A DNA stretch of 64,000 bases, taken from the NCBI RefSeq assembly GCF_036971445.1, contig NC_091469.1, positions 268,460,001 to 268,524,000 of the forward strand, read 5' to 3'. This DNA is from Narcine bancroftii (Eukaryota). Below are positions 804 to 63,069 of the stretch, piece by piece. How positions within the stretch are numbered: position 1 is the first letter of the stretch; the number at the start of each line of letters is the position of its first letter. Position numbers and translations under genes: made by a program. The notes under the pieces are model-generated. The model saw nothing but the letters and a program-made list of their open reading frames with translations, did not search any database and was not told the origin of the DNA.

Positions 804-918
804 AAAGAAGCTTGAAGAAAATTAAAGACTAAAGAAGATTACAGAGGATTACAGACAACTTCAAGGTGATAAGAATTTTCTCTTTGACTCAGTACTTTTG
901 GGGCTGGAATATTTCCTC

Positions 919-37100: not shown

Positions 37101-40100
37101 GGAGTCCTTAAATGAATCTTTGAATTTGTTGTTGAGGAGTCTGAAGGCGGAGGGGGAGCAACTGTTTCTGAACCTGGTGATACGAGTCTTGTGGCACCTT
37201 TGCCTCTTTCCTAATGGCAGCAGTGAGACAGAATGTGTGCAGGGTGGTGTGGGTCCTTGATGACTGCTATTACTCTCTGATGGCAGAATTCCCCATATAT
37301 GTTCTCAGTGGTGGGGGAGAGTTTTGCCTATGATGTCCTGAACTGTGTCCATGGCCTATTTGCAGGGCTTTATGCTTGGGGGTATTGGTGTCCCTATACT
37401 GACCGTGATGCAACTGGTCAGCATACTTTCCACCACACCTCTGCAGAAATTTGCCAGGGTTTCTGATGTCATACCAACCCTCCTCAAATTCCTGAAGAAG
37501 TAGTGTGTTGGGTCCAGGAAAGATCCTCTGAGATAGTGACTCCCAAGAACTTAAATTTGCTCATCCTCACCACCTCTGCTTGCCCAGTGATCACTGGATC
37601 ATGTACCTCTGGTTTTCCCTTCCTGAAGTCAACAATCAACTCTTTAGTTTTGGTAACATTGAGTGCAAGGTTGTTGTTGGTGCACCATTTAGCCAAGTCT
37701 TCAATCTCCCTCCTGTATGCTGGCCTATTGCCCCTTTTAATACAACCCACTACTATGGAATCAGCAAATTTGTAGATGGTGGTGTTATAATTAATTTCTC
37801 TCCCCCCAAGTTTACCAATAAAGTCTCACTAATGTACTTAATAATATACTAAAAAAGACTCTTATCAGGCAGGGATAGGGAGACACTTTGGAAGAGTCAC
37901 CCCAGTGACAAATGACATCGATCATCTCTTCATCCTGGATGCCAGTACTTAATTCAAACACAACTTTATTGAAACTTTATTCAAAAGCTACTTTGGGCTG
38001 GTCACAACTGGGGTGCTTGCAGGCTGAACGTTTGTTTCCAAGGGTTTTGTGTGGCTTTGGAGAACGTTTATTTAAAACTTTATTTAAATTCTTATTTATC
38101 TCAAATTCTATTTATTTATTTATTATTTTTGCTGGTTGTTTGAGATTCTGGTTGAATGAGTAACAGATAATGGGGATTTTACTGTATAACCTAAGGGAAA
38201 TCCCCATCCTGTTTATCTACATGAACACAAATTGTACCTTCAAGTCGATTGTCATCTGATTGTACAAGTATAACCCTATGAAACAGCGTTCTCTGGTCCT
38301 CGGTGCAAAAGATGCAGACACACAACCAGGCATAACGTACATACAGACAAACAATACATAAGCAGTGCAAGTATTTCACCTATACAAATAAATCAATAAG
38401 AATTGCTTTTTGTACATATGGGAGTCTCGGATGGCTAGTGGTTGTTCGGCATTCTGACTGCCAGTGGCAGGAGCTGTTCCTCAGCCTGGTGAAGCTGGCT
38501 CTGATATTCCTGTATCTCTTTCCAGACAGGAGCAGCTGAAATATGCTGTATGCAGGGTGGGAAGGGGTGCTCAATGATTCTCATTGATTTTGTGCATCTT
38601 GGCTTAAAGATTGAACATACAAGGAAAACAAATGATTGTCAAATTTTAATTACTTGTTTTATTTTGACTAGTTGCTCCAGAAATTACTGGATGTGAGGAC
38701 CGTAAAATCATGAAACATTTAGAAGAAGAAGTAGTCACTTGGAACATTAGCTCATTTCGACCTTGTGAGATTATAATTTGGTTGTATGTAAAGAGGAAGG
38801 AGAAGCATGCGAAAAGTCCAATTTTTAATTGGAGTGCCAAAAATCGTACTGAGAAAGCAAATGGATTAAAGGTCAAAGGTGATCATGAAAACGTGAAACT
38901 ACTTGTGAATTCAGATTGGAAAGATGAATCATTTAAGCCTTTGGATCCTGAATTTGAAACTAATTCAGAAGGAATTTCCAGAGTCAAGATCAGTGTTAAA
39001 ATATATCCTGATGTTATCACTGATGATGAGGCTGAATTAATTATAGAAGTTCAACATCAAGCTCTCAAGCAACCAATAACAAAGTCTTTAACATTGGATG
39101 TTAAAGGAGGTAAATTACAATCATTTACTATGACCATTAATCTCTTTATTGATTTCTTTCTGAAAATCTATGCTTAACATCTATAGTTTATGACATTGAT
39201 GTGGATGTTTGTGTTAAATACAGTTCTGACATGGTGAACTAAACATTGAGAAATATTAAGACAGTAAAAATAATATTTTCTTGCTCGTGTGGTTGTCAAT
39301 TAGCGTGATTACATTATTTTCTTTTTCTTTCCCAAAGTTCCACCTAAGGTTTTAAACATTTTGGTGCCACCTCACGTCAATCACAATGAATTTGTGGCTT
39401 TGGCTTGTACAATCACTGGATTTAAGCCAAGCCCACTAAGTATTATCTGGCAACAGAAGAGAAAGAACAGTGATTTGGAAGAAATTGTTCGGCTGGAGAG
39501 GGACAACAGAACAATCTTTTTCAGTGGCACAAGGGAAAAATATAATGAAAAACATTACATCTGTGAAGCACAGCATGATGACAAAACTTGGAGCAAAACC
39601 AGTGTATTGGTTATTGTGCCAGATATAAACCAAGACCAGGACTCGCAGTACCTCTGTCAGATACAGCACCCCTGCACTAACAGTAAACAAGAGCAAGAAA
39701 TAATGCTAAAAATTGCAGGTATGTATACTTTTATCTAAGCCCTTGCATAGATAGAAGACACAGAATTAGAGGATACTCCAAAGAGCGCAGTGTCTTGAAT
39801 GGCATATTTTACTAATTTCTGTCTGAAGGCAGAAATATGTTTACAAAGAAAAGGATTTAAGAACATGCAAAATAAATCAATTAATAGGATATGATTATAC
39901 TGAAGTTAAAAAAATAATGTAATTTATAGTTTTATTTTTTATCTTTTTTCCATAGTTTTCAAAACCATATGTGATAACTTTTCTGGCTGTTGGCCATGTA
40001 AAAGCAAAATAGTTTCACCAATCTGCTTTGTTTTCTCTTTCAGCCACACCTAAACTGGGCACTATAAAATGTAGCTCAGAAAAAATAATTCTAAATGTAC

Positions 40101-43100: not shown

Positions 43101-46100
43101 TCTAGTATTTGCCAAAGCCCTTTCCTGCTCACGGTGTCGAAGGCTTTGGTGAGGTCAACAAAGGTGATGTAGAGTCCTTTGTTTTGTTCTCTGCACTTTT
43201 CTTGGAGCTGTCTGAGGGCAAAGACCATGTCAGTAGTTCCTCTGTTTGTGCGAAAGCCGCACTGTGATTCTGGGAGAATATTCTCGGCGACACTAGGTAT
43301 TATTCTATTTAGGAGAATCCTAGCGAAGATTTTGCCTGCAATGGAGAGCAGCGTGATTCCCCTGTAGTTTGAGCAGTCTGATTTCTCGCCTTTGTTTTTG
43401 TACAGGGTGATGATGATGGCATCACGAAGGTCCTGAGGCAGTTTTCCTTGGTCCCAACAAAGCTTGAAAAACTCATGCAGTTTGGCATGCAGAGTTTTGC
43501 CGCCAGCCTTCCAGACCTCTGGGGGGGATTCCATCCCTACCTGCTGCTTTGCCACTTTTCAGTTGTTCGATTGCCTTATATGTCTCATCCTGCTCTAGCC
43601 TTAGGGGCTGTTGAGGGAGCTGGAGCAGGGCGGAATCTTGGACTGAGCGGTTGGCACTGAAAAGAGATTGGAAGTGTTCTGACCATCGGATGAGGATGGA
43701 GATCTTGTCGCTGAGGAGGACTTTGCCGTCTGAGCTGTGCAGCGGGCTTTGGACTTGGGGTGAGGGGCCGTACACAGCCTTTAGAGCCTCATAGAAACCC
43801 CTGAAGTCGCCAATGTCCACACTGAGTTGGGTTCGCTTGGCGAGGCTAGTCCACCACTCATTTTGGATCTCCTGGAGTTTTCGCTGAAGATGGCTGCATG
43901 CGCGACGGAAGGCTTGTTCCTTCTCGGGACAGGACGGCTTTGTAAGGTGAGCCTGGTAGGCAGCTCGCTTCTTTGCCAGCAGCTCCTGGATTTCCTGGCT
44001 GTTATCGTCGAACCAGTCCTTGTTTTTCCTGGAGGAGAAGCCCAGTACCTCTTCAGTGGATTGCAGTATGGTAGTCTTCATCTGATCCCAGAGGGTTTCA
44101 GGGGACGAGTCCGTGAGGCGGATTGCATCGTGTAAGTTAAAACATCATGAGATGGGAATGTGTAAGGAGTTACCCTGTACAGGGCTGTAACAAGATGTGA
44201 ATGCATCCTTGTACTTACAAGATAAGAGAGACATTGATGGATTGAGAGGCAGGAAGCTAGCAGGGAAAGGATAGCAACAGTTTTAGTCATTGGACAAGTA
44301 ATGATATGATGATGTTCTAAGCACGTATCCAAGGGTATAAAAAATCACCATTTTGCTGATAACGGCAGAATGCATTCTCCGACTAACATGGTTAGTCGCA
44401 AGTGTTACAATCCGGTAATAAAGAACAAAGAACCCTGATTTCGACTCAGTCTGGTGTTTGTCTCACTCATTCATGAACAAAGCAGACCTAACAATTTGGT
44501 GACCCCGACGTGATGGGTGAGTGAACACTGGACGACGGTTTCTGTTTTTTCTGACAATCATCTCAGCCGGCTGATAAAAAGGTCCAGAGAAGCCTGTTTT
44601 AACAAAATTCTCTTTTTTTTTTAAAATCTTTATGATTGTCAGTAAGAACTGGAGATCGGACAAATTAGACGACCACAATTGAAGGTCGCATGCCAGGATT
44701 GTAACACGTAAGTGATTACAGACAAGATAAAAGTCCTTAAGGTGTTTGAATGACATTTATTAAGTGCTTCGCAAGAAACTACTAGAGTTTAAAAGTCTTT
44801 ATTGTGTCGTTGCAAAGTCCAATAGAGTGAGAAGGTGGTCTATAAACAATTGAGGACCTGAGTTTTCTGCCCTAAACTGGTTATTAAGAGGAGAAATCTC
44901 CCACGTGAAGGTTGGGCTTTGAAAGAAAACAAAGGTTCAGGCTTATTGGCCTCAATTGTATCTGAGAGACTGACTTATAAATGTCCGGTAGGTATGATAA
45001 TGTCTGTACACTTGAGAAGTTAAGAATTTATTTCCCCAATTCGCCGTGGTGGAATACCACAGCAGACACTAGAGACCTTGAGACAACAAAAAAAGTACTC
45101 AGGGACGCCTGCCTGGTGAACAAGAACGACGACAGAAGGCTGCGACAGCTGTGTCCGGATCAGGTAGGAGATATTAATGAAAAAGTTGACAAACTCCTAA
45201 GAGACACCCAGTTTATTCGAAATACTTTTGATAAGTTAAATGAGGGTATTCCCAACATCACCAAGGAGATAAAGTTACGTAAATTCATAGATTGGTACAG
45301 GGAAACAGGACAAAAGTATAGCCCAAATATTTGGTTTTCTAGTTGTAATTTAACTTTCAGACCCCTTTGGGAAAACAGAGAGTGGAAAACGAGCAATCAG
45401 AGTATACAGGACAGTCTGAAGTCAATTGGAGGACAAGACTTAGAGACTGTTCCTTTAAAAGATATTAGTCATCCAGCTTGCAAGGAGACATTTTTAAAAG
45501 CAATTTTCGTTGACATAGATCCCCTAAATGGACAAGAACCTAAATTAAAACAGGCATTAGAAAGCGGTCCCGCAGCTTTGGCTGTACAGTTGCCTGCTAA
45601 GACTTTTGACCAAGTTATTAAGGAAATTAATCAGGAATTAGAGGAGCGAAATACCAGTAATGCGGCATTGGAAAAACAAAAAATGCTCCAAAAATGTGTA
45701 GACCGCTGGAGGAAGAGGGGTTGGTTACCCGGGGGCACTGAGATGTTCCTGACAGGTGAGGGAAACAAAATTCTAAAGCGTAGTGTCTTAGATAAGCTGG
45801 AAGAAACAAAACACAGAAGGGAAAGGAAAAGTGCCTGTTTCCAGTTTCCAGCCACGAAGTGTCCGGGTTTGCTCTCTCCCTCCCTCCTTTCACCCTCCCC
45901 TCTCTCTCTTCTCTCCCCTCTCTCTCTCTTCTCCCCCCCCTCCTCTCTCACCCACTCCCCCTCCCAATCCCAATCTGTGGCGGTGCTGCCCTGAAATCCC
46001 CAGGTTGGGCAGGGCAGAGAAATACAATTTGGTTTTAATTTTGTGCCCACAATTCCAGCTCCGCATCAAATGGGATCCTGTTTTATCCTCTCTCCCTCCC

Positions 46101-46376
46101 TCTTTCCCGCACCCCCACCATTGCGGGATCAGGGCAGACATTGTGGGCTGACGTGTAGCTCACTCGAGGTGGGAGGGAAGGAAGGAGTGATAGTTCCCAG
46201 TGGTGGGAGACCCAATCTGATCCAGACCAGTGATCACAGGATGAGAACCTTTTAAAACCTTTGAAACGAAAGTGTTAATCTGAAGACTTTTCTCCCAGTG
46301 GGGCCAGTGCAAGGCATTTTCTCTCTCTATCTCTTGTGCTCTGTGTATCTGCCTCTCTATCTCTTTCTCTCGCTAT

Positions 46377-46436
<60 letters not shown>

Positions 46437-49400
46437 TCTCTGGATGTATATGATGTCATGTATGTACTCTGACAATAAATCATTTATAAGTGAGTCTTAT
46501 ACAATTAAACAAAACGGGACACAGAAAACAAAATCTTTAATCGCGAGTCAGCAAAAAAGAGGGTGAGAGACAAGGAGATGCAGTACCGCGATGTCCTAGC
46601 TATATTCGAAGAATTTGGTCTCCCTGATAACCCACCTATTATGGCCCCTGTAGAAATAGCTTGTAGACCCCCGCCCTATGCATATGTGGAGTCACAAGGT
46701 GCCCCTGGCACCCCAGATGGGATCCTGGAGTCACGTCCCTTATATCCAGATATTGAGACACTGGGGTGTGACAAGAACCGCGGGAATAGGGACACATCAG
46801 ACGAGGTACAGGCCCCTTTAATAAAAATAGAAGGGGGAGTAATAGATGTAGAGACCCCTCTGGAGTCCAAGAAAATAGAAAAGGAGTTAGAGATACAGAA
46901 ATGGAACATGAAAAAGGTTCAGGATAACATTAAAAACTTAAACAGAGATATTAATGTGCTGGGGCAGATCAGTGAGGATCAAAAAGAATTAATGGTAGGT
47001 GTATTGAAGGAAGTGGAAAAGATAACTACAACACTGTCAGGAGAAATTAAAGCTGAAGGAATGGTAATAGGAGTAAAGGACGAAAAGTGTAGTACAGATG
47101 AGGAAACGAGATACGATCCACCATGGGAGGAAAGTAAAAGGAAAAGACTCGGGAGGGAGAAAAATAGACATGCCTATCTGGACATAGTTAGGACAAAAGA
47201 GAAAGATGTGAAACAACTAAACTATGGCTGAAAAGATTATCTTAGAGATGAACGTGACCAATATACCTTTGACCCTGAGACATTGGAAGCTGATAGGGAC
47301 AGTGACAGTGACGAAGAAGAGTCAGAACAAGGTGGGATAAATAAATGCATGCCAAGAGTAAAGAAGGAGCAGAAATCCCCAAAATTGAGATATCAATGCC
47401 CATTACTGATCACGGGACGGGGAACTCAAAAATATGTACCCTGGTCACGAATGGACTTAGAGAGTTTAATGAAAAAACTACCTCCGTTGAGTAATGGGGC
47501 TAGTCCATGGATTTCTTGTTTTGAGCGAGAAACCTGCCAAGAACAATTAGCACTCGCAGATGTCAGAACTATCATGATAAGATTAAAGGCAGAAGGGGCC
47601 CTGAAGCAAATAGAGAGAATTGTAAGAAGCAGTAAATTGGGGGATGAAATAGAATTTAACCCACTTCGGAATAAATTTTGGGAAGCACTTAGAGAAACAT
47701 TTCCTACACCCTATAGTTTGGATGCCTTGGTAACCCTTCAACTAAAGGAAGGAGAGACTGCACACGAGTATTTCACTCGAGCATGGGACTTATGGGAAAC
47801 AGGGACTGGAGAAAGACCCGACCACAGCCCCTTAGGAAGGGCTCACTTTCGTAATGGGATAATAAACGGACTACCTGCTACGGTTCAAGCAAAATTAAGG
47901 GACATTGTGGGAGTAGAGACAATGTCAGAGGATTTGTGGAAAAGACACCTGACACATGCAATCAAACGACATCGTCAATCAGAGCATGCTAGGTCAGAAA
48001 GTGCGTCCCAGAAGGAGGTGGACAAGACAACCGATAAATTGGTGAGAGCCATAGAACATATAGGGGTTAAATTAGCGGCCCAACAGATAGTCCCACAGGT
48101 CATGGGGCCAGTGATAAATCCGGGACCCCAAGTAAGAAATGGTTGGGAAAGACAGCTAGGTACAATGTATAGAGGGGAACATGCAGTATGCTGGTACTGC
48201 CAAAATCCTGGACACTACCAGCGGAACTGTCCGGAGGCTGGGAGAGCAAGGGGAAAAAGATTACCCTCTATTAGAGGCTATCGGGGAAGAGGAGGAAACT
48301 TAAGAGGACAAGCAAGGGGTAGGGGTGGACACATTGATGGGCCCCAGAGAATCGGGGGGTGGCAGAGTGATCAACAAGTCCAGGCACCTCAGTGTAATGA
48401 CTATATTGAGGAAGGTGCTGAATTTGATTATTGAAGGTGCCCTGGAGAATCAAAAATCACGCCTCCCTGGGAGCCACCAAAAATTTGGGGGACGGTAAAT
48501 GGAGAAAAAATTGAATTTATGGTTGACACAGGGGCAGCAGTTACGACAGTGATTAAAAAACCCCCAGGGAGCACATTTTCGGGCAAAACATTATCTACAA
48601 TAGGATTCTCCGGGATAAGGGAAACACAGCCCTATACAGATAACATCGACATGACATTTGGACGACAAAGGGTTAAAACGCCTGTCCTGGTTGTGCCAAG
48701 TTGCCCCATTAATTTATTAGCAAGGGACATTCTTACCAAACTAGGAATAACCATACAATGTTCTGAGAAGGGCCTTCGGTTAACATACCCAGGGGATACA
48801 ATAAGAAGGGGAGGACAGTTTATAGTAATGACCCCATCTAACGCTTCAGAAGACTCTGTGGAGGTTAGTATTTTCTGGAGTCGGCTACTGTATGATGAAC
48901 CAGGCCCAGGGCTGGTTAAACAGTTTTTTGAGTGGAGGGCCAGTATTCCTCGGTATGGGGATTACCATTCTCCACTAGATCCTATGCATGTTACATTAAA
49001 CTACACCATCCACCCGGACCAGGAATATGAGGAGAGGTGGGACTCTCTAAAAGAAGGGAAGACAGAAACGATACATTGTCCATTTATCTTTGTAGGTAAG
49101 GAGGGAATAGCTGCTATGGTTGTCATGACAGAAGAACAAATGGAGTGGTTCTGCTTAGGAGTAGAAAGTGTGCCTCATGTGACCTTGGGTATTGCCAAAG
49201 ATCATCACGCTCGACAGCTGGGTCCGATGGTAAAGGAAGCGATAGGGTGTGAATACAGGCAGACAGAAATCCCGGGATATTCCACCTCGGAGGGAGGAAA
49301 ATTTGTCAGACTGAATATTGAAGCATGGGACCAGGTAGTGAATGAGAAAGTAGAAAGAGACCGAGCCATAGAAGGAGAAAATATTGATCACAGAGACTCA

Positions 49401-52400
49401 GACAAATATCTTTCTAATCTGAGTCCACATATATGGACAACGGGGCCCTATGATGTGGGAGTAATGAAAGGAGAGGTATTTCTAGAATTGGCCAACCCCG
49501 GGCAGAAACCAATATGGAGAAAACAATACCGCTTGTCGCCCAGTCAGGAGGAGGGTATTAAAGGAACGATAGAAGGGTTAATGGAGTCAGGGGTTTTAAG
49601 GGCAGCACCTGACAGTATGTGGAACACGCCCATCATGCCTGTTCCCAAACCGGGTAGAAAAGACTGGAGGATGGTACACGACCTCCGGGAGATTAACTTG
49701 GCTACCAAGACCATCGGGAGACCAGTCCCAGACCCATATGTAGCACTTAGGGCTCTGAGTCCGGAGCACGAATACTATACTGTCATTGATCTGGCAAACG
49801 CATTCTTCTGCTTGAAATTAGCTGAGGAATGCCAAGACTGGTTCACTTTCACTTACCAAGCACATCGGTACACATACACTAGATTACCTCAGGGTTATAA
49901 GGATAGTCCAGGACTGTTCAATCAGGCCCTTAGCGAATCCTAATGAAATTAAAGCTCCCGGAAGATGTTACACTGATTCAGTATGTAGACGACCTACTAT
50001 TAGCAGGGAAAACGCCACATGAGTGCCTGACAGGGACAGCAGTTTTACTCAAGGGGTTAGGCGAGGCTGGATTTAAAGTAAAAAGGTCGAAATGTCAGAT
50101 CGGAAGGAGGGTGGTAACTTTCCTAGGAAGACTCGTGGGTAAAAACGGTACGGCCATGTCTGAGGCACATAGAGAAAAGATACTAGGGTATCGAAAACCT
50201 ACTACAGTACAGGTCATGCTTCCCCGGGCTCTGAGCCTAATTAAGGTGGCGGGCCATTCCCCAGATAACACAAAGGAAGGGAAGGGAAACACGGCGGCTG
50301 ACAGGGCAGCCAAACAGGTTACTGGTTATCATGAACATATACAGGGGATGATTTTGAGGTCCCATAACAAAAAAAATGAATCTGAAACTAAGGAGACTTG
50401 TAGCAGATTGAATGACTACACAGATGAGAAGGGAGAGGGACCCCCACCGAATATTGAGCACCTAATAGAAATACAGGAAAAAGCTAGCCCAAGTGAGAAA
50501 GAGGAATGGATGAAACGCGGTGCCACTCGACAGGAGATCAGCTATGAAAATCAGACAGTACATGTTTGGCGCTCCCCTATAGGTACGATAGTTGCCCCTC
50601 GTCAATTACTCCCACTATTATTTGAAGAAGCTCATGGGCCGACTCACATTAGCGCCACCAAAACTTATAATACGCTTAAACAACATTGGTGGAATCCCCA
50701 CTTACGCGAGCACATTGACAACTTTAGAGCTGAATGTACTATCTGCAACGGGGATAACCAAAGGATCACCTTACCCCACCCGCTTTTACGATTTCCAGTA
50801 CCGACAGCCCCGTGGAAAGAGATCTATATTGACTATACAGATATGGGTACTGACCTTAGGACAAAGGAGGGTTACCGATATCTTTTAGTGGCAGTAGATA
50901 GGTTCTCACGATGGGTGGAGGCTATTCCAACAAAGAAAGAAGATGCGGATAGTGTAATAGGCTGGCTAACGCGAGAGTTAATACCCCGCTATGGAGTCCC
51001 CAGCAGGATATGCTCTGATAATGGGTCTCATTTTAAGAATGAGCTGATCCGACAGGTTGAAGAATACCTAGGGATCAAACATCGTTTTGGTAGTGTCTAT
51101 AGGCCTGAGAGCCAGGGGTTAGTAGAAAGGGCAAACAGAATGATAAAATCTAAATTAGGGAAAGTTTTAGGGGGGACCAGGTTGAATTGGGTTGAGGCAT
51201 TGCCATTAGTACTGATGTCTATGCGACAAGAGAAGGCCAAAGATACCTTCCTGTCACCGCATGAGATTCTAACGGGTTGACCCATGCCCGGTCCAAAGAC
51301 TGATCCAGCATGGGTTAAGTTGTGGGAAGAAAGGGAAGTGGAACTAGATCATTATATGCAGATGCTGGGTAATATGGTTGCTTTAGTTTCACAACAGGTG
51401 GCGAATGCTAGTAAGGAGAACCCGGACACTGAAGGAGTTTCAGTAAAGGAGGGAGACCTGGTGTATATCCGTAAACCAGGTCTTTGCAGATGATGCCGCT
51501 TTAGTTGCCCATTCAGAGCCAGCTCTTCAGCGCTTGACGTCCTGCTTTGCGGAAACTGCCAAAATGTTTGGCCTGGAAGTCAGCCTGAAGAAAACTGAGG
51601 TCCTCCATCAGCCAGCTCCCCACCATGACTACCAGCCCCCCCACATCTCCATCGGGCACACAAAACTCAAAACGGTCAACCAGTTTACCTATCTCGGCTG
51701 CACCATTTCATCAGATGCAAGGATCGACAATGAGATAGACAACAGACTCGCCAAGGCAAATAGCGCCTTTGGAAGACTACACAAAAGAGTCTGGAAAAAC
51801 AACCAACTGAAAAACCTCACAAAGATAAGCGTATACAGAGCCGTTGTCATACCCACACTCCTGTTCGGCTCCGAATCATGGGTCCTCTACCGGCACCACC
51901 TACGGCTCCTAGAACGCTTCCACCAGCGTTGTCTCCGCTCCATCCTCAACATCCATTGGAGCGCTCACACCCCTAACGTCGAGGTACTCGAGATGGCAGA
52001 GGTCGACAGCATCGAGTCCACGCTGCTGAAGATCCAGCTGCGCTGGATGGGTCACGTCTCCAGAATGGAGGACCATCGCCTTCCCAAGATCGTATTATAT
52101 GGCGAGCTCTCCACTGGCCACCGTGACAGAGGTGCACCAAAGAAAAGGTACAAGGACTGCCTAAAGAAATCTCTTGGTGCCTGCCACATTGACCACCGCC
52201 AGTGGCCTGATAACGCCTCAAACCGTGCATCTTGGCGCCTCACAGTTTGGCGGGCAGCAGCCTCCTTTGAAGAAGACCGCAGAGCCCACCTCACTGACAA
52301 AAGGCAAAGGAGGAAAAACCCAACACCCAACCCCAACCAACCAATTTTCCCTTGCAACCGCTGCAATCGTGTCTGCCTGTCCCGCATCGGACTGGTCAGC

Positions 52401-55400
52401 CACAAACGAGCCTGCAGCTGACGTGGACTTTTTACCCCCTCCATAAATCTTCGTCCGCGAAGCCAAGCCAAAGAAAAGGTAAAGTACATTGGACTGAATT
52501 TAGGTGGTCTGGACCATACACTGTTACCGCCGTAACAGATAGGTCGGTAAGAATTGACAAACCAGGGGATCATAATTGGCATCATTTTGCCTACTGTTCC
52601 AAGGCAAAACAGCACGTAGCCAGCCTTGATAGAATTGATGAGACTCATGCAGACGATACCGGGGGCCCTATGGGCAGTACTACTAATGGGATGCCAGATA
52701 AGTCAGCAGAATAGCTCGGATTCCTGCGGGGCCAAAGTTATTCTAAAGGTAGACAAAGACAGGGATAACACCTTCCAGTTCGATCTATGCAGTATAATAG
52801 CGTGTGGTAAGAATGAGGCGTCCTGGAGAGGATATGATGTTTACATGTGTGCCTTTCAAATAGGATATCCTAAATGGGGTCTACATGTCTGTCCGTCTTG
52901 GGGTGAGGTTTGGTGGTGGACAGGACCCGACACTAGATGGATAAGAAAACCCCTTAACAAAGGGTCCAGCAAACCTTATTATAATTTTTTCACTAAAATC
53001 TCCCTGATACGTGGTGCTGTGACCTATTCAATGAAAGGAGAGAATCCCCTGATTTTGACAGTAAAGGCGGGGCTGCGCAACCCGTGGAATATGAAGGGAT
53101 GGAGCTCTAAGACATGCGAGGGGGGCACAGGGAGAGAACATGGTGTCGGAGACCTCTTCTATCTAATGATTGGAGTGTCTATTAATGGAAAAGATCCTTG
53201 GGGAGTGGTGAGGTTCGACTTACTAACATACACAAAGGTCATAATTAAACCCACTTCGAAAGAGGGGGAAGTGAGAAAATTCGACAGTACGAAGATGTCC
53301 AGGGGAGAGAAGATAGCAATTGAGACAGGTATTGATGAGTCAAACTCCTGGATAGATCAGATGGGTAAATATGCGGACCAAGCAGGCTATGGGAACTGCT
53401 GGGTCTGTGCCCGAGGAAGGCCATTATTACGGATGAGCAGATCAATTTTTGAGGAGACAGATGCTATGGACTGCGCCTTGAACCTAATGTCTGATATGGG
53501 AACAGACGTTTCCCATAGCTCCGGCTAATGTAGCTCCCCCTGTCTTTAGATCCACAGGCATAACTAATGTTACTTGTTTTGCCAACAACAACACAGCAGC
53601 GCACGTTTTCCATGTGGGTTGGCTGCCCAGCGACTCGTGCAGGACTCATGTTGATCTCTCACATAGCAGTAGTGCAACCCGCTTGACCCAGGCTAGGGCG
53701 GATATTTGGTGGTTTTGTGGAGGAAGAGTGCTGTACAACTGGCTCCCCGCTAACTGGGATGGTCGGTGTGCTCTAGTAACCCTTAATGCGCCAGTGCTGA
53801 TTGTCAAAAGGCAGGAGGGAGACGAGGATTCCCTAGAATTGCACCACACAGAGAGTTGGCTGTGGAGAAAAAGGAGGAGTGTTGGACTCTTGGGGCCGGG
53901 AGGAAGGAACCCTGATGGGGTATGGATTGATGCCATTGGCCAAGCCCGGAATATTCCGGACGAATTTAAATTAGCCGATGAGATTGCAGCTGGGTTTGAA
54001 AGCTTTCCTGTTTTTAGTGCAATTTTTCCCATCACTGTAAATAAGAATGTTAATAGGATCAACCTTATTCACTATAATGTCCAGCGCCTTGCAAATTTGA
54101 CCAGGGACGTTGTTGAGGCAATACATCAACAACTGTCAGAAACTTCCCTTATGACACTTCAAAATAGGATAGCGATTGATATGGTCCTGGCAGAGAAAGG
54201 TGGAGTGTGTGCTATGTTTGGAGATCTATGCTGCACTTCTATCTCTAATAACACAGGGCCAGATGGATCACTCACTAAGGGGTTAACGAAACTTAGGGCA
54301 TTGGCGAAAGAATTAAAAGCCCAGTCTGGAGTCTCCAATCCTGTTTTATCCTGGTTACAGGGAGTGTTTGGGAGATGGAGCACATTGTTAGGACAACTTT
54401 TGCTGGTTTTGTTCATTTCTGTATCAATTTTTATCACTTGTGGCTGTTGTTGTATTCCATGCATTCGAACGCTGGTCACGAGGACCATAGAGAGAGCCTT
54501 TGCTGACCGTGATGAACTGCCTCCGAAATATCAAGCTGTGCAGGCTGTGGAGCAAGACTATCTCACATTACAGGAGGCGGAGAAAGTTGCTGAGATCGAT
54601 CTGGAGTCTGAAGGGGAATGTGATGGGAAGGAGGGATTGTGAATTAGATTGTTACACATATAATTTTAACCTTGCTTGTAACCTAAATATTATAACCTTG
54701 ATTGTAGAACAAATATTATAACATTGATTGTAACACAAACATTATTAATCAGATTGTAGAACAAGTATTATGAATTAGATTGTAGACCATATGTTAACTT
54801 GGGAATTTACTAATGTACGGGGGGGTTAGCTAGTTTTTTGCTTGGGGGCAAATGGGATGAAACTTGTAAACGGGCAATGGGATCGGGGTGACGGATGGGG
54901 GATGTACGCAAAGGAGGGTTGGGGGAGCCCTCGCCCACCAGCCGAACTAACCTGTGAACAGAACCCGTATAGAGCTTGGCAATAATAGGCGAACTAATGT
55001 AACGCGGTGGTAGCATAGTCAGGGCGAGATTGTCCTCTAAAGAGGACAAAGGAGGGATTGTAAGGTAAAACATCATGAGATGGGAATGTGTAAGGAGTTA
55101 CCCTGTACAGGGCTGTAACAAGATGTGAATGCATCCTTGTACTTACAAGATAAGAGAGACATTGATGGATTGAGAGGCAGGAAGCTAGCAGGGAAAGGAT
55201 AGCAACAGTTTTAGTCATTGGACAAGTAATGATATGATGATGTTCTAAGCACGTATCCAAGGGTATAAAAAATCACCATTTTGCTGATAACAGCAGAATG
55301 CATTCTCCGACTAACATGGTTAGTCGCAAGTGTTACAATCCGGTAATAAAGAACAAAGAGCCCTGATTTCGACTCAGTCTGGTGTTTGTCTCACTCACTC

Positions 55401-58400
55401 ATGAACAAAGCAGACCTAACAATTGTCGAGCTTTGCTTTGAGGTTTGCCTGGAAGTTTCCTCTCACTTCGTCTGACTGCAGGTTTCCAACATTGAACCTC
55501 TTTCTAGGGGCTCTACTGTTCCTGGGGTTTGGCTTGAAGTGAAGGTTGAGCTTGCAGCGAACCAGCCGGTGGTCAGTGTGACATTCCGTGCTGGGCATGA
55601 CCCTGGTGTGGAGCACATCTCGTTTGTCTCTTTCTCTCACCAGGACGTAGTCCAGGAGGTGCCAGTGTTTGGATCGGGGATGCATCCAGGTAGTCTTCAG
55701 GCTGTCCCTCTGCTGAAAAAGGGTGTTTGTAATGACAAGCCGCTGTTCTGCGCAGAGCTCCAACAGGAGGCGCCCATTCTCGTTGCACTTGCCGACACCA
55801 TGCTTGCCCAGGATTCCTGGCCAGGTTTCTGAGTCTTTGCCGACGCGAGCGTTGAAGTTGCCAAGGATGACAACCTTGTCGGCTGTAGGGGTGTGTTGAA
55901 TGAGGTTGTGCAGGTCAGTGTAGAACTTGTCCTTTTCTGCTGGTTCTGCCTGGAGGGTTGGAGCATAGACACTGATGAGGGTGATGCGACGCTTGTTTTG
56001 AAGGGGGAGTCGCATGGACATGATCCGGTCCGAGTGGCCTGTCGGGAGGTTTTCGAGTTTGGAGGCAATGGAGTTCTTGACCAAGAAGCCTACACCAGAG
56101 AGGCGTCATTCATCCAAAGGCTTGCCAGACCAGTAGAGTGTGTAGAGTGTGTAGCCTGCGCCGCGTTCTTGGAGGCTGTCTACATCTGCCAGGCGGACTT
56201 CACTGAGAGCGGCTATGTCAATGTCAAGTCTGAGGAGTTCATGTGCAATGAGGGTAGACCGACGTTCAGGTCGGTGGCTGTCAGCCTTGTCTAGCATGGT
56301 TCTGATGTTCCAGCATGCTAGCTTGAGTTTGTGAGCATCTTTTGAGGGGGAGGACGTGGAGGGGGAGGACGTGGACCTGTCCTCGGGCCTGCGCAAAGGA
56401 GCTTTTAGGTGGAGTGCAGTGTGCGCAGTACTGGCCCCACCCTTTACACCCATGCTTCGTGTGCCGTGGCCAAGCAAGCTGGGACGTGGCAGCGATGTCC
56501 TTGGGTCGTAGGTTTTATATCGGAGTTGCCTTCTCCTATGCAGTTTTCTTACCAGGGCTGGAGGGGTCTGCCTCCCCTCCTAGGTCGGCCCATACTGCCT
56601 GGACTGGGGCCGCCGCCTCCAACTCTCTGCCCGGACCGGGGCCTCCAAAATACTCCTCTAACCTCCTCTTAAATGATAGAACTGACCCTGCCACAACTTC
56701 TTCCTCAGGTAGATCATTCCACTCAGCCACCACTCTCTGAGTGAAGAAGCATCCTCTTATATTACTCCTAAAGTTTTGACCTCTAACCCTTAACTTATGA
56801 CCCCTTGTTCCAATCTCACCTACACTTAGGGGAAAGTGCCTATTCACATCTACTCTATCTATTCCCTTCATAATTTTAAATACCTCTCAACCTTCTACGC
56901 TCCAGTTAATAAAGTCCTGGTCGACTCACTCTTCCTCTGTATTCAAGATTATATGAAAATCTTGTTCTCTTTCGAGAATAAAGTGACGTGGTTTTCATCG
57001 TCTTCTGATGAATGATGCAGTATATGGGGGGGGGGGGGGAGGAGGAAAGAATCATGACAAATAACAAAACAATTAAGAACCATTATGAGAAAGAAAGAAA
57101 GTACTTTTCATTTTCTATTCATGACAGTCAATTGCCTGTCGCCATTGAATATCTATTGCCATTTTTGTCCTTGCTGTTTATTAACCAGAGATAATGTGGA
57201 ATTTGTACATATCAGGATTACACCAACAGCAATGTATTAAATGAACACTTGATCTGTTTTGATGAATTTTGAGGGTAAAATAGTGGTCAAGACATCGGGA
57301 GAGCTATCTGTTCTTCAGATAAAGTGCAATCAAACTTTTGATGTTTACATGAACAAGTGGTCCAGAATCTTTTTAAGGCTTCAGAGTTCTTTAAACATTA
57401 TTTTAAGGTCCTAATGTAAATTACTTCAAGTCCAACATTGTGAATATAATTCAGGCTTCATTTCAGGTACAGAAGAATTTCTGAATGTAGTTGGGTGGAA
57501 ATATTTGTGCCCAACTCTATATTTGGCCAGTGAAAAAATCCATGTACGAAACTTTAAAGCTGCAGGCCTGACCTTTGAGTTAACTAATCTATGGCAGGGA
57601 TAAATTGCTAAAATCTATCTCTGGCTTAGACCTTGGGAGATGAATTGTCGCGTGCGTGCGTGCGTGCGTGCGTAAAACCTCAACTATGAACTGTTCTATA
57701 GAATTTAAAAAAGAGAAAGGATAGCGTCTCATATTTTCTGAGCTTGACCACTTAAAAATCAGAACCAGAATTTATTGTCATGAACAAGTCATGAAGTTTG
57801 GTGTTTGTCAGCAGCGTCATAGAGCAAACGTACATATTATAACCATCTTACAACATTACTAAAATAAAATAATACTAGTGTACGAAAAGTAAGGTAGTAC
57901 CTTTGGTTCATTGATTATTCCAGAATCTGATGGCAGCAGGGAAGAAGCTGTCCTTGTGCCGCTGAGTGCTCGTATTTAGGCTCCTGTATTTTTTCCCCGA
58001 TGGTAGCAGAGTGAAGAGGGCCTGGCCTGAGTGGTGGGGGTCTTTTGAGGATAGAGGCTGCTTTTTTAAGACACTGCCTCATGACTAGTGTCAATTTTCG
58101 TTTAAATTGTCATGTTCTTTAAGTTATGCATTTAGTTGAACTTTCTTTTTTTCTCTCCCTTTTCTCTGTCCAGGTTCATTGCCGACGCTCACAGCAATTG
58201 AGGCAAATCCACCTTGCCCGGAACTAGGACATCCTTTAATACTTTCCTGCAAAGCTTCTGGATTCTATCCAGAAACAAATCAAGTACTCTGGTTCAAAGA
58301 ATTTGATAAAATCACAGATGGAATTGAAACAGGAAGAAATGTTTTAGATACAGCCAGTGGTTTGTACTCACGATCATCCCAGTGGAGATTCAAACCAACT

Positions 58401-61400
58401 GTTAATGATCACGGAAAAGAGTACAAAATGCAATTCCTTCATTTTGAAACTTCAAACAAGCCTCTCACAGCCAGTTATGTTTTGAAATTGAAAGGTAAGC
58501 CCTGTTTCCACAAAAGCGTAGGACCAAAAGAACAAAAATGGAAGCAGGAAAGGCCCTTCATGGGTGGCCTGACATTCTGTAAGAGCACAGCTGAACTTTT
58601 ACCTCAGTTCCATATTCTTGCCCTCGCCCACATCCATTAGATACTAAAGAGTTCTCAATCTCTGTCTCGAATATAAGCAGCCTTCACAGCCACCTTTATT
58701 CTCATCATTTTTCAGCCAGTTGAAATAACAATTTCATAATCGGCCTGGCCAGCCCCATAAGATTTATTTTTGTATTTTAGTGGGATCTGTTATAAAGTGA
58801 GTAGCATAAAGTTGTGAGGTGTCTGAAATATCACCAGAAGCAAAACTTGAGCCATTGATTTTGGATTTTATTTCATCTTAAATATTCATTACTGTAAATG
58901 ACTGGTTTCATGAATTTCAACAGGAATTCCCTATGTTGAAGACATAAAATGGAAACCACAGAAAGCAATGTATGGCACAGAACTTGCTCTCACCTGTGAA
59001 GTAAATAACTTTATTCCAAGAGACATCAGAACACAATGGCAAAGAGGAAAAATTCCAATAACCAAAGGAGTTGAAATTGACGGTCCTAAGATGAACCAAA
59101 ATCAATGTTTTCAATTGGTGTCCTGCTTGTATGTAAAGACAACTGCTCTGGATTTTGATGAAGACATTTCCTTTTGTGTGTCCCATTCTAAATTATCTGA
59201 GATAATAATTAAAAAGGCATCTTTAAAACTTCAAGGTACGTTTCACAAAATCTCCTTGGCTTTTTACATTTCCCATCCCACCCAAAGATTTGAATATGTT
59301 CACTTTATATAGGTACACAATCCTTTATCTGGACATCTAAAATCCAGAAGCTCAAAAATCTGGCAAATGGGGAGAGAGAAGGCAGCGCGAGTCAGGCAGG
59401 CGAGGGGGAGAGACCAGAAATATGAGTCAGGCGGGTGAGAGACCGGCAGTGCGAGTCGGGAGGGCAAGGGGAAGAGACTGGATGCGCGAGTCGCTTGGGC
59501 GAGAGACCGGCAGGACAAGTCGGGCAGGTGAGAGACTGGCAATGCGAGGGGGAGAGACTGGATGTGCGAGTTGCACGGGCGAGAGACCGGCAGGGCAAGT
59601 CGGGCGGGCAAGTGGGGGGGAAGACTGGCAGCGCGAGTCAGGTGGGCGAGGGGGTATGGAAGGGGGTGGGGTTGGATATGGCATCACAATTTGGTGGGCT
59701 TAAATCTGGCTTTCCAACATCCGGGAAAAATCCACAATTCAGAACACACTGTCCCCCAAGGGTTCCGGATAAAGGATTGAGTACCTATATTTGCACGTGG
59801 CACATCATGATTGATTGTTGAGTGAGAAAATCACTGATTTATGTCCCACTTTTGCAATAAATTGCCAAAAAAGTTGGAATTAGTTAAGTTTATTCATAAA
59901 ACTGCAACATAAAGTTATTAAAATGGAGCATATATGGTTTAAATTTAAAATGTTTAAATTATTGATAGACAGCACGGTAACAGGCCATTTTGGCCCAAGA
60001 GCCTGCGCTGCCCAATAACACCCAATTAACACAGCGCCTTGTACGCTTCAAACAGTGGGAGAAAACCGGAGTCCCTGGGGTGGGGGGGGGGGGGGTGGAA
60101 CTATGTAGACATGGGGAAAATGCACCAACTCCTTACAGACAGCACGGGATTCGTACCCCTGTCCATATGCTGGCACAGTAACACTAAATAATTGCACTAA
60201 CTGCAGAGTTAACCGTGCTGCCTAGTAAAAGTTTAAGTAAATTGTAAAAAAAAAAGGATTTAAAATAAATGCATCTTTTAAATATTAATCAGAATAAAAT
60301 TACATAAAAGATCAAAATATTTTAATTGATCAGATTCAGAATTGATATTTATAGTGGTCTGTCACCTTTGCTACAAGGTGGGATACTTTGAATAAAGTGA
60401 TGAACTGGATATCTATAAAAATATTCCAGTGATTCAAACAAGTAATTTTCAAAATGGTTCATGTGCTTTTAACTTGTGTCTATTGCAAACAATTTTTTTT
60501 TCATGTTGTTTAAAATTAATTATCTTGATTCACTGGCTAAACATTCAACTTTTTTTTTCTCAGCTCTTGCTCCTGACATGTCTGATATTACAAGTAATCC
60601 AAAGATACTTAAGGTTAACCAGAATGCAGAATTCAGTGTCTCATTGACACATTATGTTCCTGATAAACTGCAAATAAAGTGGTTTAAAAATGAAAAGCTT
60701 TATGAAGATGTGGTTAAGAGCCCTCCTAAGATTGCAGATGATGGTTTATTTTCATCAGTTACAAGCTTAACATTTATGACAACAGAAAATGATCATGAAA
60801 ATATCATCAAATGTGAGGTGTTTCATGAAAAGACAAAACGAAGACAAGAAAAACTTTTCAAATTACTTTTTGAAGGTGAATCTTGTTCGATAAATGTTGA
60901 GTTTAGCATGACACATTTTATTTAAGTTTTAACTGCATTGATGATTTCTTTAAACTTAAAAATATTAATTTAAATGTTTCACATCAAAGCTTCTCATTGA
61001 GTAAACTAGTTATTTACTGACGCGGAGAATAGATCATTTTGATGACTTCATTTGTTTAAAATCTGATGAGGTGAGATACTTAACCTTTCAACTGCTGATT
61101 TGATTTGACTAATGTCCGGCATAACTTATATCCTGTTTTATCCTACAGATGGTGGAGAAATTAAACCGGTTGCCAGTTTCGACAGTAAAGGTAAATTGTT
61201 CATTTTGAGAAGTTCCAGTTTTGTATATGTTCACTTAAATCTTTTGTCGCGTGCGTGAGATTTTAGACCCATGTATTACCATTTGAAATGGCATCTGTGA
61301 GTTGCCCTATGCTGCCTGCCAGCCTTCTTCATAGCTCAGCTAATCCATTGTCTTCATTACTTTAAAACAAAAAAAGGGTGGTAATGATGTGATAATTTTC

Positions 61401-63069
61401 CATTATTGATTTGATTTGCAGTCAGTTTTACCAATCCAATGAATTTCCACACTTTCTAGGTGAAAAATAGAAAAAATGCACTTATATAGCCAAATACAGC
61501 TGCAATAAAGACTTTGTAAAAAAAAAAATTATTCACAAATGTGTATATTTTTGTGTTTTTCCTAATTGAATTAGGAAAGATTAATGAAATGCTCCTCTCC
61601 AAATGGACTCCTATGCACCATGTATATAGAAATATGGAACATAGATATATCAGCGGTGTACAGGTACTTCGGCTCACGCACATGTGCCCACCCTATAAAC
61701 TTACCAAAAACTCCTCCATACTTTGTAACCCTCTATTTTCATTTCATCCATGATCCTGTCTTAGTCTCTTAAATACCCCTATTGTTCCAGCCTTCATTAC
61801 CACCCCTGGCAATGCATTCCAGGTACCCACAACTCTCTATGTACAAAAAAAAAGTAACCCCTCGTCTCTCCTAAAGTTTATGAGCTGCAATTTAAAAAGA
61901 ACTGTTGACTCTTCCATGGGCTTTGTCCTCATCAAACATTCAACATGGATTGGATACTCATTCTGAATTTTTGTGGATTTTTTTGTGCAAATTTCAGGGT
62001 CTACAAAAGTGTGTAATATCCTGTGAGCATCTACTTTAAAACAAGAATTGGTGATCACGATTGCTTGCTTTTTCTGCCAAGATCTTCCTGATCCTAACTC
62101 AGAACCTCATTCAATATGGATCCCACCCTGGTCTTGATTGTACATTTGTGATCAGTGAATTAACCAATCAAGTCCCTTTTAATCTTAGCCCTAGTGAATG
62201 GTATGGTTCAGACTCTAGAGTGTAGGCGGGGCAAGATTAGGTATGCTGACATCTGATTTGCTGTGTTCAGGAGGAAAGAGAAATACAGTCAGTGTGTGCG
62301 GAGATGGCGTCAGAACAAGCCTAAGCGGGGGCATTAGGGTAACCATGGGGTGGGAGGAGGGGGCATGAACTGTTGTTCGAGAACACACACAATGCGGGGG
62401 GGAGGGGGAGAGCGGGTGCTCTGTGCACCACTGTCACACTTTGCCCTCTCCGAGGTAACCGACAAACATGTGCTTATAGCACATGGAGACGAAACCACGT
62501 GATTCATTTTGGTGACATCTCCTGGTGTGGTCTGCAACCCCCAGTGATGGGTGGGGGGGAGGGCTATGGCCCACGGATGCCATCCCCCAAAGACCCTGAC
62601 CCTGTGTATGTGTCTATGGAGTGGATGTGATATTTTGTTGACACGAAAGCTGGTGATTTATAGAAAATCTTGTTGAAGAGTCTTAATTTTAAGAAAATAT
62701 TTCAGAAATCAACATTTTTGAAATGTCATGAAGATTTTCAAGTTATTTATTGTAAATTATATTCCAACAGGTACAGTTGAAGTGGTATCAAATGTGACTT
62801 GTCAAACAAAAAATCCTAAAGTTGGACGACCTGTTACTCTTTCCTGCGACGTTTATGGACATTTTGCAGAAGATGCTCATATCATTTGGTACAGAGCTGC
62901 TTATCCTTTTGATGAAAGAAAATTTGTCACAAACACACCATTCAAAAATAATAAAGGATTCACTACAGCACTCACTTATACGCCGAAAGAGAAAGATAAT
63001 AGCATCCAAGTTTTTATTGATATTGATATGTCGGAACATATCAGAAGTTACAACTTGCAATTACATTGA
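27975..63069 (+). CDS. NCR3LG1-like: B7-H6 (NCR3LG1)-like type I membrane IgSF protein: SP-IgV-IgC1-TM plus seven C-terminal Ig C1-like domains; 12 exons, about 1072 aa
   Basis: join(27975-28014, 33950-34291, 35183-35503, 36222-36329, 38672-39109, 39338-39718, 40044-40346, 58174-58494, 58924-59235, 60564-60875, 61149-61190, 62771-63069). All introns GT-AG and phase 1, no stops. The V domain (VGIQW...GDVSLHL...EGEYTCVVFITPEK) and C1 domain (CEASRFYP) resemble B7-H6. Confidence 0.8.
28860..30640 (+). mobile_element. L1-clade LINE ORF2 fragment, decayed
   Basis: LDAKKAFDRVEW, QGCP.SPLLFNLALEPL and NIIKMNILP motifs across frameshifts. Confidence 0.75.
30650..32475 (-). mobile_element. CR1 LINE 3' portion
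   Basis: VPWDSRVADVVPPFKKGSR, QHGF, RPNLEY and FFTQRVVAAWNDLP motifs; short-repeat 3' tail at about 30650. Confidence 0.85.
32475..32860 (+). mobile_element. L1-clade LINE 3' fragment
   Basis: KEKWEKDL...NFLHQLYLTPEKL...CLRCG motif. Confidence 0.65.
33950..34291 (+). CDS. Exon 2, IgV domain (B7-family-like)
   Basis: Acceptor TTTAG|, donor G|GTAAG; canonical Cys-Trp-Cys with DEGEYTC. Confidence 0.92.
35183..35503 (+). CDS. Exon 3, IgC1 domain
   Basis: CEASRFYP...W...DGTFNVSS...YRCTVRH; phase 1-1 splice sites. Confidence 0.92.
36222..36329 (+). CDS. Exon 4, transmembrane helix
   Basis: LIAVIIVAFLVLLAACLFFYYYM followed by basic KLRK; TTTCAG| acceptor and G|GTAAT donor. Confidence 0.88.
36880..37790 (-). 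mobile_element. Rex1/Babar-like LINE 3' portion
   Basis: AYRREIEDLAKWCTNNNLALNVTKTKELIVDFRK...FKFLGVTISEDLSW. Confidence 0.8.
38672..39109 (+). CDS. Exon 5, C1-like Ig domain without canonical cysteines, with a long loop insertion
   Basis: VTWNISSFRP...EGISRVKISV...LIIEVQHQALKQPITKSLTL; 146 codons, phase 1-1. Confidence 0.82.
39338..39718 (+). CDS. Exon 6, IgC1 domain
   Basis: LACTITGFKPSPLSIIW...YLCQIQHP; phase 1-1. Confidence 0.9.
40044..40346 (+). CDS. Exon 7, IgC1 domain
   Basis: LSCSIFGFYPKEILVTWLKNG...DGLY...YTCQVEHVSL; donor A|GTAAGT (alternative phase-1 donor after 40337). Confidence 0.9.
40440..41100 (-). mobile_element. L1-clade LINE 3' end fragment
   Basis: AT-rich decayed ORF2 C-terminus (..CIPLEKITY..) and poly-T at about 40432. 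Confidence 0.55.
44131..44493 (+). repeat. ERV 5' LTR
   Basis: TG...CA; TATAAAA at 44336 and AATAAA at 44417. Confidence 0.97.
44497..44514 (+). promoter_or_regulatory. Primer-binding site, tRNA-Trp
   Basis: TGGTGACCCCGACGTGAT, an 18-nt complement of the vertebrate tRNA-Trp 3' end. Confidence 0.92.
45813..46515 (+). other. 703-bp non-viral insertion in gag, bounded by a 9-bp direct repeat
   Basis: AAACAAAAC at 45804-45812 and 46507-46515; pyrimidine tracts, (CT)n and AATAAA at 46474. Confidence 0.8.
46378..46432 (+). repeat. (CT)n microsatellite
   Basis: Pure CT dinucleotide run. Confidence 0.95.
48435..52714 (+). pseudogene. pol: ERV pro-pol: protease, 2H phosphoesterase-like domain, RT, partial RNase H, integrase
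   Basis: In frame with gag across a TGA. Motifs VDTGA, HVTL twice, LPQGY, YVDD, HHCC, D-D-E and WSGPY. Lesions: frameshift near 49932, large in-frame deletion near 50212, stop at 51278, RTE insertion at 51482. Confidence 0.93.
51482..52476 (+). mobile_element. 5'-truncated RTE LINE inserted in the ERV integrase
   Basis: Near-identical to the other RTE copies. AGGT is duplicated at 51478-51481 and 52477-52480; removal restores IRKPG-KVHWTEFRWSGPY. Confidence 0.95.
52638..54642 (+). pseudogene. env: ERV env (gamma-type) with one frameshift near 53505
   Basis: Signal peptide, SU CWVC, furin site RKRR at 53866, ISD-like LQNRIAIDMVLAEKGG, CX6CC, membrane anchor. Confidence 0.93.
54641..54800 (+). 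repeat. Degenerate ~26-bp tandem repeat (about 6 units) in the ERV 3' UTR
   Basis: Units such as CTTGATTGTAGAACAAATATTATAAC and ATTGATTGTAACACAAACATTATTAA. Confidence 0.8.
55059..55421 (+). repeat. ERV 3' LTR
   Basis: Copy of 44131-44493, preceded by PPT AAAGGAGGGA at 55048-55057. Confidence 0.97.
58174..58494 (+). CDS. Exon 8, C1-like Ig domain (F-strand Cys replaced by Met)
   Basis: LSCKASGFYP...W...SGLYSRSS...YKMQFLH; long pyrimidine acceptor and G|GTAAG donor. Confidence 0.9.
58924..59235 (+). CDS. Exon 9, C1-like Ig domain
   Basis: LTCEVNNFIPRDIRTQW...ISFCVSHSKL; phase 1-1. Confidence 0.88.
59310..59787. mobile_element. Tc1/mariner (Tigger-like) MITE with internal GC-rich tandem repeats
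   Basis: TIRs AGGTACACAATCCTTTATCTGGA and TCCGGATAAAGGATTGAGTACCT with TA flanks; ~33-bp GAGAGACCGGCA...GCGAGTC units at 59370-59650. Confidence 0.75.
60564..60875 (+). CDS. Exon 10, C1-like Ig domain (B-strand Cys replaced by Val)
   Basis: FSVSLTHYVPDKLQIKWFKN...DGLFSSVTSL...IKCEVFH; phase 1-1. Confidence 0.88.
61149..61190 (+). CDS. Exon 11, 14-aa linker micro-exon
   Basis: TTTTATCCTACAG| acceptor and AAG|GTAAAT donor; 42 bp, DGGEIKPVASFDSK, phase 1-1. Confidence 0.65.
62771..63069 (+). CDS. Exon 12, terminal Ig-like domain ending in a stop codon
   Basis: GRPVTLSCDVYG...IIWYR...FTTALTYTP...YNLQLH*; no second transmembrane segment. Confidence 0.82.

Follow-up and report, generated by a model that had tools for sequence, protein, structure and literature searches.

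C1-set immunoglobulin (Ig) domains are known from the cell exterior and the secretory lumen, where antibodies, T-cell receptors, MHC molecules and tapasin carry them. A gene of the electric ray Narcine bancroftii raises the question of why seven C1-derived Ig domains (D3–D9) follow the transmembrane (TM) helix of a membrane protein, and why five of them lack one or both of the canonical B- and F-strand cysteines. The gene lies in the window analysed here, a stretch of 64,000 nucleotides, and an earlier note on this window had read the missing cysteines as relaxed selection on disulfides in the reducing cytosol. We consider it likely that the gene is a co-orthologue of NCR3LG1 (B7-H6) whose seven tail domains are probably cytosolic, and that in five of these a hydrophobic residue has replaced a canonical cysteine.

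Gene structure and identity

The gene comprises 12 exons on the plus strand (Table 1) and encodes RefSeq XP_069754451.1, an "uncharacterized" Narcine bancroftii protein of 1100 residues with one strong hydrophobic segment, at residue 272. As had been claimed, the frames are open: all internal coding exons are of phase 1, bounded by AG/GT and joined in contigs.

Table 1. Exons, canonical cysteine sites (B and F strands) and an intronic element of the gene, in window positions
Feature	Position	Strand	B site	F site	Remarks
Leader exon	27891..28014	+			RefSeq model first ATG to donor; basic n-region, short hydrophobic h-region; joint 28012>33948, GT..AG
Exon 2, V-set domain	33950..34291	+	Cys, TGT 34018	Cys, TGC 34234	both Cys; FG loop TPEK
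Exon 3, extracellular C1-set domain	35183..35503	+	Cys, TGT 35251	Cys, TGT 35440	both Cys; conserved sequon
Exon 4, single TM helix	36222..36329	+			followed by YYYMKLRK
Exon 5, D3	38672..39109	+	Trp, TGG 38740	Ile, ATA 39043	Ig fold with long insertion; no canonical Cys
Exon 6, D4	39338..39718	+	Cys, 39406	Cys, 39655	both canonical Cys
Exon 7, D5	40044..40346	+	Cys, 40115	Cys, 40283	both canonical Cys; end corrected to 40346 (contig end and donor site), adding the last residues GKMS
Broken LTR retroelement, D5–D6 intron	44131..55358	+			gag, protease, RT, integrase, env; spliced out, outside the protein
Exon 8, D6	58174..58494	+	Cys, 58248	Met, ATG 58428
Exon 9, D7	58924..59235	+	Cys, 58995	Phe, TTT 59172
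Exon 10, D8	60564..60875	+	Val, GTC 60638	Cys, 60812
Exon 11, 14-codon linker	61149..61190	+			acidic Tyr motif of sharks absent in this species
Exon 12, coding part, D9	62771..63069	+	Cys, 62845	Val, GTT 63010	invariant A-strand Cys; stop; 3′ UTR extends past 64000

A profile of 14 elasmobranch orthologues, run against the PDB as a one-way search, placed human B7-H6 at the top over V-C1 (E = 1.9e-47, against 8.6e-26 for CD276), with bit scores of 165 for B7-H6, 94 for CD276 and 75 for TAPBPR. With the V exon alone CD276 ranked first, its two V repeats being summed; per domain, B7-H6 scored 37.6 versus 28.4. The V-domain FG loop, TPEK, corresponds to B7-H6 T127-P128-x-K130, and its Thr, Pro and Lys recur in 32, 36 and 29 of 42 homologues, respectively. 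In B7-H6, Thr127, Pro128 and Lys130 contact NKp30, according to PMC3135353. The FG loop suggests that the ray ectodomain may bind an NKp30-type receptor.

The gene belongs to a cluster of three tandem genes. Its two paralogues follow it within 125 kb (contig positions 268563635–268592608 and 268621036–268644296) and share the order V-C1-TM-D3...D8, D9 being found in neither. The third paralogue keeps both cysteines in D3 and D8, and has lost D4-B and both D7 sites. KCNJ11 is arranged tail-to-tail on the opposite strand, 14 kb past the final exon that could be placed in the third gene. We take human NCR3LG1 to adjoin KCNJ11 and to be a single gene, compared with three in the ray; a variant record lists both human genes together for one chromosome 11 variant. 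NUCB2 was not located with a crude ORF filter. A fourth V exon resembling that of this gene is unlinked (C22:88537332-88537637; E = 3e-7).

The gene is best identified as an electric-ray NCR3LG1/B7-H6 co-orthologue. It resembles human B7-H6 in the V + C ectodomain, the one TM segment, the FG-loop T-P-x-K and the KCNJ11 neighbour, and differs in the tail, which in the ray is made of seven C1-derived Ig domains and is not of the Gag-homologous type. The human tail is homologous to Gag and contains ITIM-, SH2- and SH3-type motifs, as described in PMC2715080. SIRP, tapasin/TAPBPR and UrIg2 likewise combine V and C1-set domains, with PDB matches weaker than that of B7-H6. The Ig domains of SIRP and tapasin precede the TM segment. 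Those of UrIg2 do so too, unlike the ray tail domains (PMC12227049).

The same V-C1-TM-D3...D9 plan is found in sharks, chimaera, coelacanth, reedfish, lungfish and amphibians, and most of it in a caecilian homologue, a range drawn with 20 of 150 representatives named. Two frog homologues with this plan are named NCR3LG1 by NCBI. The NCR3LG1-like RefSeq models of amphibians, lungfish, coelacanth, reedfish and chimaera match the ray protein in domain order and mostly in cysteine pattern; they differ in that the D3-B Trp is ray-specific, both D7 cysteines are present in several amphibians, and the D9-F Cys is kept in chimaera and coelacanth. Tail length varies through exon duplication, with six D6 copies in Mobula, four D5–D6 pairs in Hypanus and seven D3 in Heterodontus, and some frog paralogues reach 14 post-TM domains. 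A search among proteins of 2145–5000 residues returned generic long Ig proteins, mostly hemicentins. The D8–D9 linker carries an acidic Y-x-N-I/L motif in four of five sharks (YSNL in one of them) and YEIQ in Mustelus; in rays the acidic Tyr motif is lost and the linker is often an expanded repeat. Motifs of the Y-x-N-I/L type bind SH2 domains.

Canonical cysteines across the family

All canonical residues lie where the earlier note had located them, with intact pairs in both pre-TM domains and changes in five of seven post-TM domains. This contrast (5/7 versus 0/2) is not significant within a single gene (Fisher p=0.17), and since one gene is insufficient, the case for a pattern beyond chance comes from the family comparison. 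We scored 165 of 177 proteins, dropping 10 isoform duplicates, one IgH and one MHC, and excluded every domain whose protein showed no detected TM or that lay between two TMs, together with 43 site-gapped domains. Both cysteines are intact in 291 of 300 pre-TM domains versus 256 of 573 post-TM domains, counts taken over related sequences in which some rows may be gene-model errors. That cysteines are lost only after the TM is accordingly true of this gene and not of the family, where nine of the 300 pre-TM domains also lack one. The residues that replace a canonical Cys are hydrophobic in 419 of 432 cases, and 202 post-TM domains retain one unpaired canonical Cys. A lungfish C domain situated between two predicted TM segments has neither.

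On a tree of 42 sequences chosen for a D3-type array, with domain labels set by hand in 8, one loss falls on the four pre-TM sites versus 24–29 on the fourteen post-TM sites. The post-TM loss rate is ~12–14 times the pre-TM rate per branch length at risk, with p-values (1e-4 to 7e-4) that serve as a guide only, as the B and F sites within one domain do not change independently and several deep nodes are weak. Counts and tree (p<0.001) together bear out, family-wide, the proposed tie between cysteine loss and post-TM position. Orthologues share the losses instead of keeping the cysteines: among elasmobranch orthologues, D6-F is Met in 11/11, D7-F is Phe in 8/8, D8-B is Ile or Val in 8/8 and D9-F is Val or Ile in 11/11. 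D6-F lacks Cys in all 39 rows, and Cys at D3-F and D8-B is present only in the third-paralogue group. The swaps at D3-F, D6-F and D8-B predate the split between sharks and bony fish. Elasmobranchs and some amphibians appear to have lost the D9-F Cys again, and the D3-B Cys disappeared repeatedly, rays having Trp there. At D7-F (59172), Cys occurs in 7 of 32 homologues, in one clade with the named frogs; parsimony allows either a regain from Phe or several losses.

Not every post-TM pair is affected. D4 keeps Cys in 37/38 at each site and D5 in 41/41 and 40/41; the D4 and D5 pairs show three losses versus one in the ectodomain (p=0.29), and far fewer than the other five post-TM domains (p<0.001). 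The step from reducing cytosol to disulfide loss therefore stands as a family-wide link with post-TM position and fails as a rule for every domain: because D4 and D5 retain their pairs, a cytosolic location permits cysteine loss and does not force it. That intracellular Ig domains often lack the disulfide is established, and the intracellular Ig domain of APEG-1 offers a precedent for the same kind of swap, with Ile/Cys at the B–F pair (PMC1352370).

We regard it as very likely that, where no disulfide forms, a canonical Cys would be a mere core-packing residue, exchangeable for Val, Leu, Ile, Phe, Trp or Met; purifying selection would then preserve the exchange, with the partner left unpaired as a buried thiol. 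Five domains would carry hydrophobic substitutes because a B–F disulfide would not form in the cytosol. A cytosolic tail might in addition have a redox function, with D4 and D5, and the D9 A-strand Cys, forming disulfides reversibly or undergoing thiol modification and so switching folding or binding, a role already suggested for titin, whose Ig domains may form intracellular disulfides (PMC1352370 and PMC6937205). The D4 and D5 pairs, lost no more often than those of the ectodomain, fit such a switch, as does the D9 A-strand Cys, which is found in 25/25 sequences and thus more often than either canonical D9 Cys. We nevertheless think it unlikely: the unpaired cysteines of D6, D7 and D8 are retained nearly as strictly (38/39, 30/32 and 29/29), which packing alone explains and which makes core packing the simplest account, and the D9 A-strand Cys persists in sequences that have lost the B or F Cys and can thus have no obligatory partner. 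In the homologue alignment, none of the other Cys columns covaries with an unpaired Cys as an alternative partner would. A redox role would in any case add to the core-packing explanation rather than replace it.

Two further cysteine positions were considered. The earlier note had seen in D7 a canonical Cys shifted by one residue; the adjacent Cys occurs in only 3 of 32 homologues, in a column of mostly R, Q, L, H, K or E, and we reject it both as a shifted canonical Cys and as a replacement partner, in favour of a rare surface variant. In the extracellular C1 domain (35183–35503), a third Cys is present in 38 of 42 homologues and may form an interchain bond; this gene has Leu there.

Conservation and fold of the tail domains

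Pfam C1-set matches D4–D8 above the cut-off (29.5–61.7 bits versus 21), scores 16 bits on D9 and does not match D3; NCBIfam gave no match. C1-set scores exceed I-set scores wherever both match. D3–D9 are best described as C1-derived and not as canonical C1-set domains, the B–F pair being absent in 5/7. AlphaFold models all seven as beta-sandwiches, including the Cys-free D3 (pLDDT 85.7), which overlays the B7-H6 C domain with Z 12.2 and an rmsd of 1.9 Å over 97 aligned residues at 20% identity; this domain ties with others, as D3 reaches Z 12–13 to Ig domains of several sets. Foldseek likewise retrieved only generic Ig arrays for the whole model and Ig domains of mixed sets for D3, and the ESM Atlas returned generic Ig clusters. 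A self-association prediction for D3–D5 scored 0.12, with the alignment not used, and weighs on neither side.

Titin, telokin, APEG-1 and obscurin resemble the ray tail in having an Ig fold without the B–F disulfide, a hydrophobic substitute, an unpaired core Cys and a tandem array. They are soluble muscle proteins of the I-set, whereas the ray domains score as C1-set and would hang on the cytosolic side of an immune ligand anchored in the membrane; given these scores and the TM segment, the ray array is not of the titin-type I-set class.

In a domain tree, sequences group by array position, one clade per position whatever the taxon or paralogue (bootstrap 95–100; for D3, 7/8), and the array is therefore older than the split between cartilaginous and bony fish. 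Derivation of the tail from the C1 exon of the same gene was considered and set aside, as the domain tree does not resolve at that depth.

Mean identities are 60% for V, 55% for C1, and 42, 59, 56, 60, 50, 55 and 53% for D3 to D9, so that D6–D9, four of the five Cys-affected domains, are conserved about as well as V and C1 (50–60% versus 55–60%), and D3 least. These values bear on whether selection on the post-TM domains is relaxed, with cysteines drifting away as in a decaying tail. Losses do recur on the tree (D3-B eight times, D9-F four times), D3 is the least conserved domain, and domain number is labile, rays dropping D7–D8 or repeating D6. Against ongoing relaxation, which we judge very unlikely, the substitutes are fixed and hydrophobic, D6–D9 match the ectodomain in identity, the C-strand Trp is invariant in D4–D9, and the reading frames are open and spliced. 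The earlier description of the Ig framework as mostly kept applies overall, with two exceptions where it is weaker: Leu replaces the C-strand Trp in D3, and in D9 the BC-loop Pro and FG His are missing. Fixed hydrophobic substitutes in conserved domains argue that the cysteine changes are replacement and not decay, which is where we depart from the relaxed selection first proposed.

Topology of the tail

The side of the membrane was assessed independently of the cysteines. Across 98 single-TM proteins, N-glycan sequons reach 1.79 times expectation before the TM and 1.10 times after it, with higher density before the TM in 88/98, and net charge is higher on the C-terminal TM flank in 80/98; 97 of 105 leaders have a hydrophobic core. 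These biases suggest that the tail is likely cytosolic. Leader, IgV, IgC and one TM segment correspond to a type I plan in predicted orientation, and we hold with high confidence that type I insertion would leave V-C1 outside and D3–D9 inside. The unusual topology of the earlier note is supported by the pre-TM sequon excess and the post-TM positive charge; the cysteine pattern of this gene, which the note had counted as independent support, is by itself no evidence (p=0.17).

Reversed insertion, or leaderless isoforms using the TM segment as a type II anchor, would instead make the post-TM domains luminal or extracellular, with cysteine losses like those of some extracellular Ig domains. The intact pairs of D4 and D5 would suit that arrangement, and so would a D4 sequon kept in 12/14 elasmobranchs (but 10/38 more widely), the 16 of 121 gene models that start without a leader, and the pre-TM domains that also lose a Cys. 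The charge bias of this species is moreover weak, with zero net charge on both 15/18-residue TM flanks and +1 and +2 on the 10-residue flanks, and sequons are uninformative in this protein (2 versus 1.3 expected before the TM, 6 versus 5.1 after). However, contigs show the leader exon joined by splicing (134–196 nt of leader in three runs, 29 nt in one), the family shows a sequon excess only before the TM along with the positive-inside bias, and the 202 unpaired core thiols would be out of place in an oxidising compartment, where such thiols are unusual. Human B7-H6 is also a type I membrane protein (PMC2715080), and we consider a luminal tail highly improbable.

Transcript evidence for a single gene

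Contigs came from four runs of one study, their RNA nature being deduced from GT..AG spliced joints. They connect leader-V-C1-TM with D3–D5, and D5 with D6–D9 and the 3′ UTR. In runs X2 and X4, a single contig each (4460 and 4484 nt) extends from leader to 3′ UTR with GT..AG joints and skips the 17.8 kb D5–D6 intron with its broken LTR element; in the two other runs, two contigs each cover the gene. That the annotation fused two genes, one for a short B7-H6 and one for a secreted Ig protein, deserves next to no credence, for although the retroelement-rich intron splits the array and the RefSeq records are uncharacterised predictions, single contigs cross TM>D3 in 4/4 runs and D5>D6 in 3/4, with long flanks, and domain order is identical in three paralogues and from chimaera to frogs.

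The X4 contig has C>T at window position 63032 (Ser to Leu in D9), probably an allele. A minor X1 contig reads from D5 into the intron (window 40319–40500; depth 19.5 versus 195) and may represent a retained intron or a shorter isoform. The LTRs of the intronic retroelement are 99% alike over 300 nt, indicating a recent insertion; its frames are broken, and a LINE piece interrupts it at 51447–52418. It is in sense orientation relative to the gene. Its presence offers a loose parallel with the Gag-like tail that human B7-H6 carries. Upstream of the gene, window 826–4605 (+) holds a Gypsy-like LTR element with gag and pol frames, recognised by eye.

Implications for B7-H6

Cysteine loss in intracellular Ig domains is a known principle and the less novel part of these findings; a cytosolic C1-derived array on B7-H6 is the more striking. 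No description of cytoplasmic Ig domains in B7-H6 was found in the literature searched, and a prior description is quite possible, as key comparative papers lay outside that search. The ectodomain may bind an NKp30-type receptor while the tail works as a scaffold of folded domains, variable in length, for tethering or for signalling from the ligand, a reading to which we give about even weight. In the human lineage, the Ig tail was probably replaced by the Gag-like tail, a direction suggested by the spread of the Ig tail. Tentatively, and with somewhat less than even confidence, we propose that the ancestral jawed-vertebrate B7-H6 was a membrane immune ligand whose seven cytosolic, C1-set-derived Ig domains formed a conserved array, which would signal or scaffold inside the target cell, possibly through a redox-sensitive D4–D5 module, and which a retroviral Gag-derived tail replaced in the human lineage. 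Such an array would put the C1 fold of adaptive immunity to an intracellular use that the searched literature does not describe.

If true, the retention of a C1 array in the cytosol from sharks to frogs would alter the view of the original role of B7-H6, pointing to reverse signalling or anchoring in an NKp30 ligand, and the human Gag-like tail would be the replacement of an older module. Within the family, antibody-type constant domains also occur naturally with two, one or no canonical cysteines, a series that lends itself to the study of disulfide-free Ig folding.
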